Positions 28,975 to 37,433 of a stretch of DNA of 64,000 bases are shown here, one piece after another (position 1 is the stretch's first letter; each line of letters starts with the position of its first letter). The stretch comes from Alphaproteobacteria bacterium (GTDB lineage Bacteria > Pseudomonadota > Alphaproteobacteria > UBA8366). Under the pieces are notes generated by a model. The model searched no databases. It saw nothing but the letters and a program-made list of their open reading frames with translations, and was not told where the DNA came from. The position numbers and the translations under genes were made by a program. Location of the stretch: NCBI GenBank assembly GCA_021774335.1, contig JAJFJD010000047.1, positions 3,321 through 67,320 on the forward strand, given 5' to 3'.

Positions 28975-29213
28975 GAAGAGGTGCTCCGTTCGCATTTGGT
29001 TTTGCCAATTGCGCGAGCGAAGGACCGGAACTGCCGTGTGCCGGGCACGCCAATGCCCTGCACGACCACCGCAGATACGGTGGCATGGCGGAATAGTGGA
29101 GAGGTGGTTCGGTCGATACCCATCGACGCATTCCCCGGTGGCCCATCCCTGCGCGCACGCCACCACAACGGAGATCCGTCCCGTTGGGCGCCCCGCCCAC
29201 CGGTGGGTGACGA

Positions 29214-29407
29214 GTTGATGGCAGGTCTCCTGGCTTGCGAGTCACCGCCTGTCATCCAGCCTTCCCGAGCTATCGCTCAGTGGCGTCTCATGGACACAGG
29301 CTCGTCGCCTACAGTTGCGGGGGCAGCCACGGCTTGGGTTCAAGATGCGCGGGTAAGCGCGAACCGAACCGTGTTCCCTCTTCCTCCCCTTGCGGGGAAC
29401 CATCAAC
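29214..29407 (-). ncRNA. Cobalamin riboswitch
   Basis: P1 GTTGATGG/CCATCAAC, AAGAGGGAA, GCCCCCGCAACTGT, GCCACTG, GGGAAGG, B12 box AGCCAGGAGACCTGCC. Confidence 0.95.
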
Positions 29408-29477
29408 GGATTGGATTAAACGCCAATTCTTCCGGCCGCTCAACACCGCTGTTGGACAGGGCCGAAATTGAGGGCCG

Positions 29478-30329
29478 CTAAACCGGGGTATCGCCTTCGA
29501 TTGTCACGCGGTGCATCAGCCGCCGGTAGCCTTGATAGTCGTTCAGGGCGTAGTGATGGGAACAGCGGTTGTCCCAGAGGGCGACGGCATCGACTTTCCA
29601 GCGATAACGGCAGGTGAATTCCGGCCGGCTCATATGCTCGAACAGGAAGTGCAGGATCGGCCGGCTTTCCTCCGGCGTTATGCCGACGAAATGCGAGCTA
29701 TGGGCGCAATTGATGTAGAGCGCCTTGCGGCCGGTTTCCGGGTGGGTGCGCACGACCGGATGTTCGGCGGCCATGTCGCGCTGGTCCACATTCTGGCCGC
29801 GGCCGGTTTGGGCGGCGATCCGGCTGCGCGCGCCGCCTTCGCTCTTGTCCCGCAGCGACGCGGAACTGACGGCATACAGTGGCGCCAGCATCGCCTTCAT
29901 GCCGTCCGACAAGGTCTCGTAGGCCAGGTACATGTTCGCGAATAACGTATCGCCGCCGCGTGGCGGCAGCTCGCGCGAATACAGCATGGAGCCGAGCGGC
30001 GGCTTGGGCAGATAGGTCGTGTCGGAATGCCAGAGGCCGCCGAAGTTGAGCGTGTCCGCCTCCGTCTTGGTGATTTCGGTGATGCCGGGATGGCCATCCA
30101 TATCCTTGACGAAGGGATAGTTGACGATCGGGCCGAACCGCCCGGCGAAGGCGAGCAACTGATCCGGCGTCAGATCCTGGTCTTCCAGAAAAATGACGAG
30201 ATGCTTGAGAAAGGCGGCGTGGATTTCCGCGAAACACTGTTGGTCGAGCGGCTGCGACAGATTGGGGCCGCGGATAACCGCGCCAAGCGCGCCGGCGATC
30301 GGTTCGACCGTGATGGTTTCGTAAGTCAT
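29478..30329 (-). CDS. TauD/TfdA family Fe(II)/2-oxoglutarate dioxygenase
   Basis: WHSD (HxD), GGDTLFAN, HPVVRTHPETGRKALY, WDNRCSHHYA, RRLMHRVT. Confidence 0.92.
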   Translation of the reverse strand: MTYETITVEPIAGALGAVIRGPNLSQPLDQQCFAEIHAAFLKHLVIFLEDQDLTPDQLLAFAGRFGPIVNYPFVKDMDGHPGITEITKTEADTLNFGGLWHSDTTYLPKPPLGSMLYSRELPPRGGDTLFANMYLAYETLSDGMKAMLAPLYAVSSASLRDKSEGGARSRIAAQTGRGQNVDQRDMAAEHPVVRTHPETGRKALYINCAHSSHFVGITPEESRPILHFLFEHMSRPEFTCRYRWKVDAVALWDNRCSHHYALNDYQGYRRLMHRVTIEGDTPV

Positions 30330-30406
30330 GGCGACGGGTTGATCCAAGCGAATCGTTCGGCCCCATTATAGGCGGGACAACCGGGCTGTGCGCAAACCGC
30401 GGGCGG

Positions 30407-31681: not shown

Positions 31682-32245
31682 CTAATAGGTCCCGCCGGAG
31701 TAATTCCCGCCGGTGGCCGTCACGGCGTCGGGCTGCGGCGGAACCGGACGCCCTTTGCTCGCCTGGCGCAACGCGAGGATCGAGCGGCGTGAATCGGCGG
31801 CCGGCTGATACGTATGCGAAATCTCCGACAGGGCATTCCACCACGCGTCCACCGCCGCGTCGTCCGCGACCTCGAATGTGTCGAATCCGCAGCGGTGCAG
31901 GAACGAATATTGGTCGCGCAAGACATTGCCGACGGCGCGCAATTCCTTGGCATACCCGTAGCGTTCGCGCAGCAGCCGCGCGTAGGAATAAGCGCGGCCG
32001 TCCTTGAAGACGGGAATGTCGAGGGCGATCAGGTCGAAGCGGTCGAGGTCGTCGGCGATCAGTGCCGGTGACTGGTTGCTTTCCAGCCGAATTCCGAGCG
32101 GGGCGTTGCGGCGCAACAGCGCCTCGCGGTTCGCGGTCCAGGTCGCATAGCTGACGAGCAAGGCGCCCTCGGCCGGCAGCGTTGCGTTGTCGGCCACTGG
32201 GGTCCAGGGATCATCGATAAGCCGTCCGTCTTTAATGAGGGGCAT
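31682..32245 (-). CDS. DUF934 family sulfite-reductase-associated protein
   Basis: FKDGRAYSYARLLRERYGY, ELRAVGNVLRDQ, RCGFD, YQPAAD; start overlaps the end of cysI. Confidence 0.9.
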   Translation of the reverse strand: MPLIKDGRLIDDPWTPVADNATLPAEGALLVSYATWTANREALLRRNAPLGIRLESNQSPALIADDLDRFDLIALDIPVFKDGRAYSYARLLRERYGYAKELRAVGNVLRDQYSFLHRCGFDTFEVADDAAVDAWWNALSEISHTYQPAADSRRSILALRQASKGRPVPPQPDAVTATGGNYSGGTY

Positions 32246-33887
32246 AGAGCGTCTCCTTAAAAGGGGCGAGGCCGACACGGCGATAGGTGTCGATGAAAGC
32301 TTCGCCGTCACTGCGCAGGCCGAGATAGGTGTTCACGATGGTTTCGATGGCATCGACAATGTCGTCTTCGCCGAAGGCGGGACCGACGATGTCGCCGATC
32401 GCAGTGTTCTCGTCGGCGCTGCCGCCGAGCGTGACCTGATAGAACTCGGTGCCTTTCTTATCGACGCCGAGGATTCCGATGTTGCCCACGTGATGGTGTG
32501 CACAGGCGTTGATGCAGCCGGAGATGTTCAGCGAGATATCGCCGATGTCCCGCAATCGGTCCAGGTCGCCGAAGCGCGCGCTGATGCGCTGGGCGATCGG
32601 GATCGAGCGCGCATTCGCTAGGCTGCAATAGTCCAATCCCGGGCAGGCGATGATGTCGGTCAGCAGGCCCGCATTCGGGGTCTCCAGGCCGTGCGCCTGT
32701 AGGTCACGCCACAGCGCGAACAGGTCGCTCTTGCGGACATCGGCCAGCACCAGGTTCTGGTCCTTGGTGACGCGTAATTCGCCGAAGCTGTAGGTGTCGG
32801 CGAGATCGGCGACGGCGTCCATCTGCTCGGCCGTCGCATCGCCGGGGATCCCGCCTTCCGGCTTTAGCGATACCGTAACGATGGCATAGCCCGGCACTTT
32901 ATGCTCGGTCACGTTCGATCCGACCCAGTTGCCGAAAGGGAGGTCCGCCAGCAGTTTCGCGTCGAAGTCCGGCACATCGTCCGCAATGTCCCGGTACGCC
33001 GGTGGCGCGAAATACGCCTTGATCCGGGCGATCTCGTCGTCGGGCAGGGCGAGCGCGCCGTCGCGGAGGTGCCGCCATTCTTCTTCTACGAGATCGGTGA
33101 ACGTCTCGACGCCGGTCTCGTTCACCAGGATCTTGATGCGCGCCTTGTAGATATTGTCGCGGCGGCCGAGCTGATTGTAGACCCGCAGGATCGCCTCGAG
33201 ATAGGACAGCAGGTCGCGCTTCGGCAAAAAATCGCGGATGCTTTTCGCGATCACCGGTGTCCGTCCCTGGCCGCCGCCGACGAAGACTTCGAAGCCGGAT
33301 TCGCCTGTCGGCCCGCGCTTGATCGCGATGCCGATGTCATGGGTCTTGATCGCCGCGCGGTCATGCGGCGCGCCGGTTACCGCGATCTTGAACTTGCGCG
33401 GCAGGAAGGCGAATTCCGGGTGCAGGGTCGACCATTGACGGATGATCTCAGAATAGATGCGCGGGTCCTCGATCTCATCGGCCGCGACCCCGGCGAAAGG
33501 ATCGGCGGTGACGTTGCGGATCGTGTTGCCGCTGGTCTGGATGGCGTGCATTTCGACACTTGCCAGCTCATTCAGGATATCCGCCGTTTCGTCCAGCCGT
33601 GGCCAGTTGTATTGGATATTCTGGCGCGTGGTGAAATGGCCATAGCCCTTGTCGTAGCGCCGCGCGATGAAGGCGAGCTTGCGCATCTGCCTCGACGACA
33701 GCATGCCATAGGGGATGGCGACCCGCAGCATGTAGGCGTGCAGTTGCAGATACAGCCCGTTCATCAGGCGTAGCGGTTTGAACTCATCCTCGCTCAAATC
33801 GCCGGACAGGCGGCGTGCAACCTGATCGCGGAATTGCAGGACACGTTCGGCGACCACCGTGTGGTCGAATTCGTCATAGCGGTACAT
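32232..33887 (-). CDS. cysI: Sulfite reductase hemoprotein (nitrite/sulfite reductase)
   Basis: RLMNGLYLQLHAYMLRVAIPYG, HFTTRQN, LPRKFKI, CPGLDYCSLA, ISGCINACAHHH siroheme/FeS ligands. Confidence 0.95.
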   Translation of the reverse strand: MYRYDEFDHTVVAERVLQFRDQVARRLSGDLSEDEFKPLRLMNGLYLQLHAYMLRVAIPYGMLSSRQMRKLAFIARRYDKGYGHFTTRQNIQYNWPRLDETADILNELASVEMHAIQTSGNTIRNVTADPFAGVAADEIEDPRIYSEIIRQWSTLHPEFAFLPRKFKIAVTGAPHDRAAIKTHDIGIAIKRGPTGESGFEVFVGGGQGRTPVIAKSIRDFLPKRDLLSYLEAILRVYNQLGRRDNIYKARIKILVNETGVETFTDLVEEEWRHLRDGALALPDDEIARIKAYFAPPAYRDIADDVPDFDAKLLADLPFGNWVGSNVTEHKVPGYAIVTVSLKPEGGIPGDATAEQMDAVADLADTYSFGELRVTKDQNLVLADVRKSDLFALWRDLQAHGLETPNAGLLTDIIACPGLDYCSLANARSIPIAQRISARFGDLDRLRDIGDISLNISGCINACAHHHVGNIGILGVDKKGTEFYQVTLGGSADENTAIGDIVGPAFGEDDIVDAIETIVNTYLGLRSDGEAFIDTYRRVGLAPFKETLYAPH

Positions 33888-33892
33888 AGCGC

Positions 33893-34201
33893 TTACTCCT
33901 GCGCGGCCTGATGGCCGAGATCCAAGCGGACGCTCGGGCCGGCGGCGCGGATGGTTTCCCGCTGCCCGACGGCACGGGGCGGTTGATCGCCAACCGTGCC
34001 GCGGTCGACCGGGATCAGATAAGGTTCGACGACGATCTGGGCCTCGACCGAGGCCTGCGCGGACTGCAGCAACGCGTCGGCCTGTTCACCCGCCTTGGCA
34101 AGGCGGCTGGCCTGGAGCGTCTCGGACCAGGTGAGGGTGGGTGTCAGATAGACGACCTGCCCATCGTTTAGCCGATTTGCGGTAACAGCTTGCAACGTCA
34201 T
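33893..34201 (-). CDS. DUF2849 family protein
   Basis: VTANRLNDGQVVYL, VVEPYLI, RETIRAAGPSV; ATG 34201. Confidence 0.88.
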   Translation of the reverse strand: MTLQAVTANRLNDGQVVYLTPTLTWSETLQASRLAKAGEQADALLQSAQASVEAQIVVEPYLIPVDRGTVGDQPPRAVGQRETIRAAGPSVRLDLGHQAAQE

Positions 34202-34215
34202 GATCTGTTCCTCCG

Positions 34216-35022
34216 TCACTCGGCGGCGGCCAACGGCCAGCGCTCGGGTTCCGATGCTTTGGCGAACCGCGCCACGTCGCCGATGACGATCAGCGCAGGG
34301 CCGGTGACCCCGTTGTCCCGAATGACCGCTTCCAGCCCGGCGACGGTGCCGACTGCGACTTTCTGTGTCGCCAGCGTCCCATTCTCGACCACCGCGATCG
34401 GCGTGGTCGGGGCAAGACCACTTTCGATCAACCGCGCACCGACACGGCCCGCGGTCGAAATGCCCATGTAGACGACGATGGTCTGACGGCCCCGTGCCAA
34501 CCCATCCCAATCCAGATCCGGGTCGCCGTCCTTGGCGTGCCCGCTGATAAAGGTCACGGCGGTGGCATGGTCCCGATGGGTCAGCGGGATGCCCGCATAG
34601 GCCGCGCAGCCGGTCGCCGCGGTGATGCCCGGTACGATCTCGACCGGGACGCCGCGCGCGAGCAAATAATCGACTTCCTCGCCGCCGCGCCCGAAGACGA
34701 ACGGATCGCCGCCCTTGAGCCGGATCACACGCTTACCGGCTTGCGCGCGGCGCGCCATCAGGGCGTTGATCTCGTCCTGTGGAACGCTGTGGTTGGCCTT
34801 CGCTTTGCCGACGTAAAGGACTTCCGCGCCGGGCCGGGCGAAGTCCAGGATGCCGGGCCCGATCAGGCGGTCGTGGATCACGACGTCGGCGTCGCGCAGC
34901 ACGCGCAGCGCCCGCAACGTCAAAAGGTCGGGATCGCCGGGTCCGGCGCCGACGATGAATACCGTCCCGGGCTGTCGTGCTCTTGCCGGGCGTGGTGCCG
35001 GAAAGGATAGAAAATTAGTCAT
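34216..35022 (-). CDS. cobA: Uroporphyrinogen-III C-methyltransferase (siroheme branch)
   Basis: VGAGPGDPDLLTLRA, RLKGGDPFVFGRGGEE, VPGITAA, GIPLTHR; ATG 35022 after GAGGAG. Confidence 0.93.
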   Translation of the reverse strand: MTNFLSFPAPRPARARQPGTVFIVGAGPGDPDLLTLRALRVLRDADVVIHDRLIGPGILDFARPGAEVLYVGKAKANHSVPQDEINALMARRAQAGKRVIRLKGGDPFVFGRGGEEVDYLLARGVPVEIVPGITAATGCAAYAGIPLTHRDHATAVTFISGHAKDGDPDLDWDGLARGRQTIVVYMGISTAGRVGARLIESGLAPTTPIAVVENGTLATQKVAVGTVAGLEAVIRDNGVTGPALIVIGDVARFAKASEPERWPLAAAE

Positions 35023-35073
35023 AGAACGTGTCTCCTCGCATCGACCATATGGGCCCACGGAGCACGTCTCCGT

Positions 35074-35127
35074 GGCGCTTTAGCGGTTGGTATCGCGGTC
35101 GCAAGCTGCCCGTTCAAATCCCACGGG
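35074..35127 (-). ncRNA. SAM-II (SAM-alpha) riboswitch aptamer 2
   Basis: CGTGG-GATTTG-AACGGGCAGC-TTGCG-A-CCGCG-ATACCAAC-CGCTAAAGCGCC; P1 and pseudoknot both pair. Confidence 0.75.
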
Positions 35128-35153
35128 CCCTTTCAGAGGGAAGGACCAACCCC

Positions 35154-35187
35154 AACAAAAATCCGCCGCGGCAAAAAGCCGGGCGGA
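35154..35187 (-). terminator. Intrinsic terminator between the two SAM-II aptamers
   Basis: TCCGCC-CGGC-TTTTT-GCCG-C-GGCGGA followed by TTTTTGTT. Confidence 0.65.
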
Positions 35188-35193
35188 GCCCTT

Positions 35194-35251
35194 GTCGCTT
35201 TAGCCGCATTTATTAAGCGCCCGCAATCTGACCGTTTCTCAAATCGGCGCT
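35194..35251 (-). ncRNA. SAM-II (SAM-alpha) riboswitch aptamer 1
   Basis: AGCGCC-GATTTG-...-GTCAGA-TTGCG-GGCGCT-TAATAAAT-GCG-GCTAAAG-CGAC matches the SAM-II consensus. Confidence 0.8.
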
Positions 35252-35258
35252 GATGGAT

Positions 35259-35287
35259 GAAATAACACTGACTATGGGTAGAGTCAA
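35259..35287 (-). promoter_or_regulatory. Putative sigma70 promoter with overlapping inverted repeat
   Basis: TTGACT-N17-TATTTC placing +1 near aptamer 1; TGACT-N8-AGTCA repeat at 35269-35286. Confidence 0.45.
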
Positions 35288-35353
35288 TTAATACACGTAA
35301 TTATCACGTATATTTTATATATAACTATATTGATGTGTAATTAATTGGAGAGA

Positions 35354-36769
35354 TCATTGTAACGAAAGGAGTTTTGGAGATTCTGGCCCGTTTGCGATCG
35401 CCGGAAAGCGCAACCGCACGCGAAGGCCGGGTTGGTTATCTTCCAGCGATAGTTCGGCATAATGCAGCCGCGCCGTGGCGGCGACCTGACTGAGCCCTAG
35501 CCCGCTGCCGGGTGTGCTGCGGCTGTCATCGAGACGGACGAAACGTTCGAGGACACGCTCGCGCTCTTCCGCCGCAATGCCCGGCCCGGTATCGGAAATC
35601 GCGAATCCCGGCCGCCCATCCGCGTCGCGCCACACGGCAAGTGCGATGGCGCCGTTCTCCGGCGTGTGGTTGAACGCGTTGTCCAGCAAATTGGTGATCG
35701 CCTGCGACAACAGGTTCCGATCGCCATCGATCAAACAGTCATCGGCCGCGTTCACCTCGAGGCGCAGCCCCCGATCGTCCGCCGCCGCGCTGTACAGATC
35801 GGCCGCGTCCCGCACGAGTGCGCCCAGATCGAGCCGTTCGAACCGGTCGCGCAGGACCCCCGATTCCGCCAAGGCAATCGCAAGGAGGGCGTTGAAGGTA
35901 TCGAGAATGCCGTCGGTTTCCTCGATCGTCTTGGTAAGCGCCGCTCGATACTCCTCCGGATTGGATTGCGCCATCAGCGTGACTTCGAGCCGGCTGCGCA
36001 AACGCGAGATCGGGCTGCGCAGGTCGTGCGCGATGTTGTCGGCGACGCCGCGCATGCCTTCCATAAGCCGTTCAATCTGATCAAGCATGTCGTTGAGGTT
36101 CTGCGCCAGCCGGTCGAATTCGTCCGCATAGCCGGTCACCGGCATGCGCTGCGTCAGGTCGCCGTGTAGGATCGCCCGGCTGCCCAGGTTGATCGCGTCG
36201 AGCCGACGTAGAAAATTCCGGCTCAACAGCAGCCCGCCGCCGAAACCGAGTGCCAGTGTGGCCAGCAGGGCCCAGATCAGCGCATTGGTAATGGTTTCGC
36301 GAAAAGCTGCGCGCTCGGTCAGGTCGCGCCCGACCAGCAGGTGGAACCCGCCTTCGAGTTTGAAGGTGCGCGCCCGAGCGATTTGCGGCCGCAATGTAGG
36401 CCGGGCCGCCTGCTTGATGTGGAAGTCGATCCACCGCGGCGCGCCCTTGGCCGATTCGGGCCAACCGGTCAGGTTTCCTGCCAGCGGTGTGAGAAAAGGA
36501 TCGGTCAGCAGATAGACGCCCCGTCGGCCGCTTTCGCCGGAACTGCGCTCCCGGATGATTTCGACGAGCCCGACGACGCTGCGTTCGCGGTACTGCTCGG
36601 CGAGGCCGGTGATCTCCGCCTCGATGGTGTCGTCGCTTTGCGCGTCGATGACGCTGACGGTGCTCCAATACACAAAGACCAGAACGCCGCAAACCGACAA
36701 CCCGAACACCGCCATGTAGAGCATTGCGTAGCGGAATGTGGATGTGCGGAATAGCCTATTCCGGAACAC
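35354..36769 (-). CDS. HAMP-containing sensor histidine kinase
   Basis: Two TMs, DEFDRLAQNLNDML, H-box IAHDLRSP, NLLDNA, DTGPGI, GSGLGL. Confidence 0.93.
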   Translation of the reverse strand: MFRNRLFRTSTFRYAMLYMAVFGLSVCGVLVFVYWSTVSVIDAQSDDTIEAEITGLAEQYRERSVVGLVEIIRERSSGESGRRGVYLLTDPFLTPLAGNLTGWPESAKGAPRWIDFHIKQAARPTLRPQIARARTFKLEGGFHLLVGRDLTERAAFRETITNALIWALLATLALGFGGGLLLSRNFLRRLDAINLGSRAILHGDLTQRMPVTGYADEFDRLAQNLNDMLDQIERLMEGMRGVADNIAHDLRSPISRLRSRLEVTLMAQSNPEEYRAALTKTIEETDGILDTFNALLAIALAESGVLRDRFERLDLGALVRDAADLYSAAADDRGLRLEVNAADDCLIDGDRNLLSQAITNLLDNAFNHTPENGAIALAVWRDADGRPGFAISDTGPGIAAEERERVLERFVRLDDSRSTPGSGLGLSQVAATARLHYAELSLEDNQPGLRVRLRFPAIANGPESPKLLSLQ

Positions 36770-37433
36770 GGAGACAGTATCCTGCGCCGCGCACGGTATG
36801 CAGCAGCGGCGTGTCGAAATCCTTGTCGAGCTTTTGCCGCAGCCGGCTGATCTGCACGTCGATCACGCCGGTCTTGGGGTCGAAGTGATAGTTCCACACA
36901 TTCTCCAGCAGCATGGTACGGGTCACCACCTGCCCGGAATGGCGTATTAGGTATTCCAGGATCTGAAACTCGCGCGGCAACAGATCGATCCGCGTGCCGG
37001 AGCGCGTAACGGTCCGGGCCAGCAGGTCGACTTCCAGATCGCCGAGCGTCAATGTTGTTTCGGTCGGGGCGGTCTGGCCGCGCCGCATTAGGGCTTCCAG
37101 ACGGGCCTGCAATTCGGAAAAGGCATAGGGCTTGGTCAGGTAATCGTCTCCGCCGGCGCGCAATCCTTTCACCCGGTCGTCGACCCTGTCCATCGCGCTG
37201 AGGATCAACACCGGTGTGGTGTTCCCTTCTTTGCGCAGCAGCTCGATGATGTGCAGGCCGTCCATACCGGGCAGCATGCGGTCGACGATCATTCCGGCAT
37301 AGGCCTCGGTGGTGGCGAGATGCAGGCCGTCCGGGCCCGTTGCCGCGTGATCCACCACGAATCCCGCCTCCTCGAGGCCTTTCTGCAGAAACGCCGCCGC
37401 TTCCGTGTCGTCTTCGATCAGCAATAGTCGCAT
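36756..37433 (-). CDS. OmpR/PhoB-family response regulator
   Basis: LLIEDD, DRMLPGMDG, GGDDYLTKPY, winged helix LHTVRGAGY. Confidence 0.95.
   Translation of the reverse strand: MRLLLIEDDTEAAAFLQKGLEEAGFVVDHAATGPDGLHLATTEAYAGMIVDRMLPGMDGLHIIELLRKEGNTTPVLILSAMDRVDDRVKGLRAGGDDYLTKPYAFSELQARLEALMRRGQTAPTETTLTLGDLEVDLLARTVTRSGTRIDLLPREFQILEYLIRHSGQVVTRTMLLENVWNYHFDPKTGVIDVQISRLRQKLDKDFDTPLLHTVRGAGYCLRVPE

Follow-up and report, generated by a model that had tools for sequence, protein, structure and literature searches.

The leader described here precedes a cobA-like gene on the minus strand of a 64,000-nt stretch of alphaproteobacterial DNA (contig JAJFJD010000047.1; the whole stretch analysed is called the window), and its closest described relatives are the SAM-II riboswitches, which sense S-adenosylmethionine (SAM). 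According to Corbino 2005 (PMC1273637), the metA RNA of A. tumefaciens binds SAM selectively and rejects S-adenosylhomocysteine (SAH), the promoter of a SAM-II element usually lies a few nucleotides ahead of helix P1, and many representatives carry intrinsic terminators. The initial annotation of this locus had called the class usually translational, which does not agree with that description. The SAM_alpha regulon of the Rhizobiales and Rhodobacterales has metY as its core and further includes hom, metA, metX, metC and metW; the main text of the paper describing it names no cys or siroheme gene (Leyn 2014, PMC4239095). The single SAM-II element, as represented by the metA element (PMC1273637, PMC4239095), resembles the window leader in its P1 helix and pseudoknot, in the promoter before P1, in the frequent terminator and in its OFF logic. 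However, the window has two aptamers, and its targets are cobA/cysG, DUF2849, sulfite reductase and DUF934.

Tandem arrangements are also on record. Sherlock et al. 2022 (PMC9481103) counted 44 tandem SAM-II examples and 149 SAM-II/SAM-V tandems. Some of the tandem SAM-II examples have a terminator after each aptamer, others a terminator first and control of the ribosome-binding site (RBS) second, that is, two SAM-II aptamers in one 5' leader with the same layout as in the window. In 'Candidatus Pelagibacter ubique' (PMC9481103, PMC11508383) a SAM-II aptamer coupled to a terminator precedes a SAM aptamer coupled to the RBS, and together they form a two-mechanism OFF switch on sulfur/methionine genes. 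In the window, unlike in Pelagibacter, the second aptamer is SAM-II and not SAM-V, and the controlled genes differ. The initial annotation had rightly given the Pelagibacter tandem as background and had missed the published SAM-II/SAM-II pairs with the terminator first and the RBS second. The tandem architecture is thus already published for SAM-II, and the window case is not new in kind. The main text of PMC9481103 gives no gene contexts or species for the 44 examples, and cobA/cysG leaders or the window's genus may be among them. The window aptamers score below threshold and could be overlooked by a threshold-based survey.

The open-access full texts searched contained nothing relevant in which siroheme, uroporphyrin, sulfite reductase or cysI is connected to SAM-II, and the link between SAM-II and the genes of siroheme synthesis and sulfite reduction may be new. 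The physiological logic has a precedent in Bacillus subtilis, where SAM-I (the S-box) controls the cysH operon, siroheme genes included. There too, a SAM-sensing leader stands before sulfate-assimilation/siroheme genes. However, the B. subtilis element belongs to another aptamer class, is a single aptamer, occurs in another phylum and acts on transcription only.

We interpret the leader as two SAM-II OFF switches in series, of which the first works through a terminator and the second through the cobA RBS, and we give this two-switch interpretation a probability of roughly 0.8. The region 35500-34800 was read directly on the minus strand. A histidine-kinase gene ends there with its stop at 35354, and after it come an AT-rich segment, TTGACT, aptamer 1, the terminator, about 28 G+C-rich nt, aptamer 2, a hairpin (CCACGGAG/CUCCGUGG), GAGGAG and ATG. 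The motifs and coordinates of the initial annotation were all correct. The elements of the leader are as follows.

35194..35251, minus strand: SAM-II aptamer 1, from RF00521, our model R1 and pair counts
35154..35187, minus strand: intrinsic terminator; stem 35187-35178 with 35172-35162 (C35168 bulged), loop U35177-U35173, U tract 35161-35154
35168..35207, minus strand: proposed anti-terminator; tail GCGGC-U-AAAGC (35207-35197) with GCUUU..GCCGC (35179-35175 plus 35172-35168)
35074..35125, minus strand: SAM-II aptamer 2, from RF00521, R1 and pair counts
35053..35078, minus strand: anti-sequestor hairpin; CCACGGAG (35075-35068), loop 35067-35063, CUCCGUGG (35062-35055) and two outer pairs
35026..35067, minus strand: RBS-sequestering helix; ACGUGCUCC (35067-35059) with GGAGACACGU (35035-35026), covering most of GAGGAG
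35037-35032, minus strand: cobA RBS GAGGAG, read from the sequence
35022-35020, minus strand: cobA ATG, read from the sequence

When positions 34900-35450 (551 nt) were searched with an E-value threshold, the coding strand contained two full-length matches to RF00521 (SAM_alpha), 45 nt apart. Aptamer 1 matched at 35260-35179 (minus strand, model 1-79, 32.3 bits, E 1.6e-5) and aptamer 2 at 35134-35060 (minus strand, model 1-79, 30.3 bits, E 5.5e-5). The gathering score of this family is 36 bits, and an Rfam search of the whole window at gathering thresholds listed a cobalamin riboswitch only and neither aptamer. The initial annotation had expected two covariance-model hits and had held that one or none would speak against it; two matches exist below the curated cut-off and none at it, so that read strictly at that cut-off the result goes against the annotation. 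Homologous aptamer-1 copies in related tandems exceed the cut-off (36.6-42.8 bits). In the same 551 nt SAM-V (RF01826) gave no match at E values up to 10, which places neither aptamer in that class, and the SAM-II long-loop model (RF01726) matched aptamer 2 only (15.2 bits). The bacterium's own 5.4-Mb genome contains four RF00521 matches at E<0.01, of 62.3 (canonical), 32.3, 30.3 and 24.6 bits. Our own model R1, which was built from 30 aptamers and encodes P1 but no pseudoknot, scored aptamer 1 at 76.3 bits and aptamer 2 at 60.4 bits. Because both are sub-threshold, standard annotation would overlook them.

The failure of both matches to attain the Rfam gathering score would be expected if short motifs resembled SAM-II by chance and were not functional RNA. 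However, the matches extend over the full model, 14 control genomes yielded no RF00521 match at E<=0.01, and the arrangement is kept across genera and families with compensatory changes. The comparative data contradict a chance resemblance, which we regard as extremely improbable.

The structure of the two aptamers follows the SAM-II pattern, with a P1 enclosing the GAUUUG/UUGC loop and a GCUAAAG tail in an H-type pseudoknot. In aptamer 1, P1 is formed by A35251-C35246 with G35221-U35216, the boxes are GAUUUG (L1, 35245-35240), UUGC (35226-35223) and GCUAAAG (35204-35198), and the pseudoknot pairs 35232-35225 with 35200-35194, ending in GUC (35232-35230) with GAC (35196-35194). In aptamer 2, C35125-G35121 pairs with C35098-G35094 (one G.U pair included), GAUUUG (L1) lies at 35120-35115 and GCUAAAG at 35084-35078, and the pseudoknot pairs 35110-35103 with 35080-35074, ending in GGC (35110-35108) with GCC (35076-35074). 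The stems that the initial annotation had reported (P1 AGCGCC/GGCGCT versus CGTGG/CCGCG, pseudoknot ends GTC/GAC versus GGC/GCC) are present, and both P1 and pseudoknot covary. The GAUUUG, UUGC and GCUAAAG boxes show little or no variation across 30 aptamers. From these elements both aptamers are predicted to bind SAM.

For pair counting, 36 aptamers (34 distinct) were aligned to R1 and the pseudoknot was added by hand. Among the 34 distinct sequences, 85.4% of the P1 and pseudoknot cells held standard pairs, versus 73.8% after shuffling (none of 500 shuffles reached the observed value) and 28-50% with the strands slid. P1 cells were paired in 95% of cases, with four of the six pairs varying on both sides; pseudoknot cells were paired in 78.3%, with three pairs varying on both sides, and kinship of the sequences inflates these covariation counts. 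Pair types switch in pseudoknot columns 24-63 (GC17/CG7/UA1) and 25-62 (UA12/GC11/CG4/UG4). The slid controls together with these switches argue for a real pseudoknot.

The terminator behind aptamer 1, a hairpin plus U tract as first annotated, forms in equilibrium folds and is preserved with changes in related leaders (L007-L010 and L019-L021). A simple terminator scan flagged none at this position, probably because the stem is bulged. The aptamer tail is complementary to the apical half of the terminator, that is, to its loop and inner 3' arm. This duplex has an energy of -15.2 kcal/mol in the window (RNAduplex), and the anti-terminator is the minimum free energy (MFE) structure of the 90-nt nascent prefix. 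The complementarity covaries and recurs in most of 26 leaders, as GCGGC:GCCGC, GCAGC:GCUGC or GCUGU, and ACGGC:GCCGU. A tail and its own terminator reached a mean of -11.2 kcal/mol (n=26), versus -8.3 for mismatched combinations (n=498), in which tails were joined with terminators from leaders having a different 5-mer. The presence of SAM would release the terminator, since the tail bases are also part of the pseudoknot in the SAM-bound state. As another candidate anti-terminator we considered the 3' strand of P1 (CGGGCG:CGCCCG); it appeared in one constrained fold (L007) and was less well supported than the pairing of tail and terminator.

Aptamer 2 is followed by a hairpin and then the GAGGAG of cobA, as the initial annotation had stated. 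The anti-sequestor hairpin shares 35078-35074 with the pseudoknot strand of the aptamer, and its 5' arm mimics the RBS region. In 12 distinct relatives 96.6% of its cells were paired and three pairs varied on both sides, with 28-50% in the slid controls. Its 3' arm and loop make up ACGUGCUCC, for which GGAGACACGU at the RBS is the competing partner. With the tail and loop blocked and P1 forced, the pairing probability of G35034-G35032 and C35030-G35027 was 0.94-1.0, versus 0.08-0.62 unconstrained; G35035 was paired in both states (0.96 and 0.93) and the bulged A35031 remained unpaired. The alternative RBS helix is also present in relatives, and the two folds are near-isoenergetic. In L109, L036 and L043 the 5' arm, the anti-RBS and the RBS change in concert.

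The leader thus holds two complete aptamers with different expression platforms, and the following sequence of events is proposed for it. Both aptamers would act as independent OFF switches within one mRNA leader. Without SAM, the tail of aptamer 1 (35207-35197) would pair with the apical half of the terminator and RNA polymerase would read through; with SAM, the tail would be held in the pseudoknot, the terminator (35187-35154) would form and transcription would stop. Aptamer 2 would handle the transcripts that escape this first tier. Without SAM, the hairpin at 35078-35053 would hold the anti-RBS strand and leave the cobA RBS free; with SAM, the pseudoknot would take the base of the hairpin, ACGUGCUCC would re-pair with GGAGACACGU, and initiation at the ATG at 35022 would be blocked. 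Both switching events and the start of transcription are our inference from this anatomy. The two aptamers would share one transcript; the roughly 28 G+C-rich nt from the U tract to P1 of aptamer 2 are too few to hold a second promoter. The net result would be feedback of the end product SAM on siroheme synthesis and sulfite reduction, which supply sulfide for cysteine, homocysteine, methionine and SAM; CobA itself uses SAM.

The distribution of the tandem was determined in two surveys. The first, with RF00521, covered 61 genomes of the bacterium's order, its own included, and found adjacent same-strand pairs in 11 genomes (13 loci); 16 regions were compared. A wider survey with R1 over 91 genomes of the order (E<=1e-4) found pairs in 22 genomes (26 loci). 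Eleven of the 91 genomes carry a cobA or cysG gene with the tandem in front of it; they are 5/5, 4/4 and 2/2 of the genomes of three genera in two families. In the window's genus it precedes cobA in all four other genomes as well. In two genera of another family it precedes a cysG-DUF2849-sulfite reductase series (six genomes); in L012 and L014 the genes behind the tandem encode a siroheme synthase with four domains (CysG), DUF2849 and sulfite reductase, and in L103-L106 it stands before CysG. Tandems before metY-like genes, with a Cys_Met_Meta_PP domain in L011, L013 and L015-L018, were also found in L107 and L108. The tally of gene contexts leaves out seven loci (G072-G076, G063:C1:1738750 and G064:C238), and the reading of leaders in the later set leaves out L118-L122. 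The two-tier switch that was first proposed from the window sequence is supported by the full-model matches, by covariation and by the retention of the tandem in three genera and two families.

Each half of the leader also occurs alone. In four genomes of two sister genera (L019-L022) aptamer 1 and its terminator are followed directly by the RBS and cobA, with cobA identified by Pfam in L019 and L022. A wider sample consisted of 80 alphaproteobacterial sulfite-reductase loci with 62-72% identity and no near kin, at least four of which had less than 1 kb upstream of cysI. An aptamer was found upstream in four of the 80 (L036, L043, L054 and L099); only the aptamer-2 type was detected in each, followed by a hairpin and RBS. 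The contig of L036 begins 124 nt upstream of the aptamer, and an earlier first aptamer is possible there. The same lone element of the aptamer-2 type precedes cysG in L109. After the lone aptamer of L054 (Nisaea sp., a metagenome-assembled genome) an upstream open reading frame (ORF) of 16 codons lies at 1700-1760, and its ATGA end overlaps the cysG start, which suggests translational coupling. An ORF before cysG is also present in L036 and L099.

The copies resemble each other by position in the pair. All aptamer-1 copies (L011/L012 of G039, L013/L014 of G043 and the window) have P1 AGCGC(C/U)/GGCGCU, and the linker U(U/A)A(U/C)AAA is common to all copies but L018. The aptamer-2 copies all have the P1 core CGCGG/CCGCG (CGUGG in the window). 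These sequences are shared regardless of the gene (cobA, cysG or metY-like) and across three families; this suggests that the pair spread either as a whole or from two founder copies. Within the same genomes, metY-like and cysG genes are preceded by this pair in the same order and with the same P1 sequences. Of the modules that stand alone, the aptamer-1 type with its terminator precedes cobA in sister genera, and the aptamer-2 type with its RBS-mimic hairpin precedes cysG in distant lineages. A tentative reading, to which we give somewhat less than even odds, is that the SAM-II regulon of the order extends past methionine genes to siroheme synthesis and sulfite reduction, and that the leader is a mosaic of two separable modules. 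If so, these loci would be a natural series for the assembly or disassembly of a two-mechanism tandem, followed by its copying between operons.

Other SAM-II-like elements were seen in the same searches. One, in the bacterium's own genome (contig C53, L004:1509-1574, minus strand), has L1 GCACUUG in place of GAUUUG, and scores 24.6 bits with RF00521 and 38.6 with R1. Its pseudoknot ends in 4 bp, it carries a terminator of its own, and the gene behind it is metY-like (Cys_Met_Meta_PP). The element is preserved in 4/4 genus relatives (23.5-27.4 bits), and its altered U-rich box could affect ligand binding. In L114 (G026) a second, divergent aptamer (GCUUGU, CACUAAAG) comes after aptamer 1 and the terminator; its tail continues directly into the RBS, and the leader precedes a 175-aa protein without a Pfam match. 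Single SAM-II-like elements stand before an NMT1/THI5-like periplasmic binding protein gene in L111 (G066) and, farther from the gene, ahead of one for an AsnC-type regulator in L112 (G013); these associations, too, are unusual.

Several observations weigh against the two-switch interpretation. Both aptamers stay under the 36-bit gathering score (32.3 and 30.3 bits), and at that threshold neither is reported. In aptamer 1 an A replaces the RF00521 consensus C of GCUUGC, which creates an A.G mismatch in the pseudoknot (A35227/G35198); because the RF01726 consensus carries the same A, this is known natural variation. The distal pseudoknot helix is just 3 bp in either aptamer. Equilibrium folds give P1 plus terminator with the aptamer constrained or free, with no ligand-dependent choice, and since these folds always terminate, control would have to be kinetic. 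In the sister genomes the RBS-sequestering helix is the MFE structure even with a free tail, the energy difference being less than 1 kcal/mol.

The terminator that always forms and the scores under the cut-off would also fit a leader with a single working aptamer, in which aptamer 1 and its terminator are a constitutive small RNA or a SAM-insensitive attenuator and aptamer 2 is in control, or the reverse. Parallels exist, in that the terminated SAM-II leader of S. meliloti metZ is described as yielding a small RNA and a paper of 2024 reports an inactivated SAM-II domain in a SAM-II/SAM-V tandem. However, aptamer 1 with its terminator is the sole cis element before the cobA RBS in the four sister-genus genomes, and aptamer 2 stands alone before cysG in five other lineages. 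In addition, all boxes are intact in both aptamers, both pseudoknots covary, and so does the tail/terminator complementarity. A single working aptamer is in our opinion unlikely.

It would be a further possibility that one aptamer is a specificity variant, for example for SAH or another sulfur metabolite, and that the pair is a two-input gate. The sub-threshold scores fit such a variant, and within the window's family (f1) the A variant, GAUUGC, was found only in the cobA leaders (all nine) and in L114; ligand-switched variants of other SAM riboswitches and of flavin mononucleotide (FMN) riboswitches have been reported. However, the three boxes hardly vary among the 30 aptamers, the long-loop consensus has the same A, and the A variant occurs outside f1 as well (before cysG in the tandem of L104 and before the periplasmic binding-protein gene of L111). 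Moreover, aptamers of the aptamer-1 type with the canonical C and the same P1 and linker stand before metY-like genes. We consider a change of ligand very unlikely, and two SAM-sensing OFF switches remain our preferred interpretation.

The leader is the 5' leader, with expression platforms, of a group of sulfur genes, and it is preceded by genes for an OmpR-type response regulator and a HAMP/HisKA kinase. The part of the operon 3' of cobA (DUF2849, sulfite reductase and DUF934) spans 31682..34510 on the minus strand. The genes and the promoter-like region are the following.

34216..35022, minus strand: cobA-like uroporphyrinogen-III C-methyltransferase, 268 aa (Pfam TP_methylase, E 3.5e-55)
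inside frame 34510-33893, minus strand: DUF2849 protein (Pfam DUF2849, E 2.2e-21)
33887-32232, minus strand: sulfite/nitrite reductase hemoprotein, 551 aa (Pfam NIR_SIR, 1.1e-58; NIR_SIR_ferr, 4.7e-33)
32311-31682, minus strand: DUF934 protein (Pfam DUF934, E 3.9e-38)
35260..35287, minus strand: promoter-like region; TTGACT (35287-35282), a 16-nt spacer and a T-rich -10-like TTATTT (35265-35260)

The promoter-like region stops a few nucleotides 5' of P1 of aptamer 1, and TTGAC and GTTATT are kept in eight related leaders. A consensus promoter scan did not flag TTGACT/TTATTT and picked another candidate, the AT-rich ATTACA/TAAAAT at 35341-35312. Judged by these elements, transcription probably starts just upstream of 35251.

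Directly upstream of TTGACT, in the region 35291-35310, TACGTG is repeated directly with an 11-bp period (35310-35305 and 35299-35294), and a looser version (CGTGA..GTGT) is retained in all eight remaining family leaders. The genes for the OmpR-type response regulator and the histidine kinase (35354-37433) are syntenic with the leader in 8/8 family loci (tblastn). The repeat and the adjoining two-component genes may mean that a protein exerts a second control on this promoter. The -35-like and -10-like elements have an inverted repeat between them (35266-35286); its sequence varies within the genus and its pairing is retained (GACU/AGUC in the window, CUGCC/GGCAG in L008 and CACCGUC/GGCGGUG in L009). 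This repeat could serve as an operator or, should transcription begin further upstream, as a 5' RNA hairpin. The cobalamin riboswitch (RF00174) is located at 29203-29419 on the minus strand (122.7 bits, E 2.6e-30), just downstream of a TauD-family dioxygenase gene (29478-30347).

The locus adds a well-supported case, with explicit models of both platforms, to the published class of tandem SAM-II riboswitches. To what is known of that class it makes modest additions, namely scores that stay below threshold, a modular series of single and tandem leaders, and the link to cobA/cysG and sulfite reductase. As the aptamers lie below the Rfam cut-off, surveys at curated thresholds may undercount the regulon. 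The single-module relatives are natural controls for what the second, translational tier adds. For the biology of this one alphaproteobacterial order, the findings suggest that feedback by SAM reaches beyond the methionine genes to the siroheme/sulfite-reductase step.

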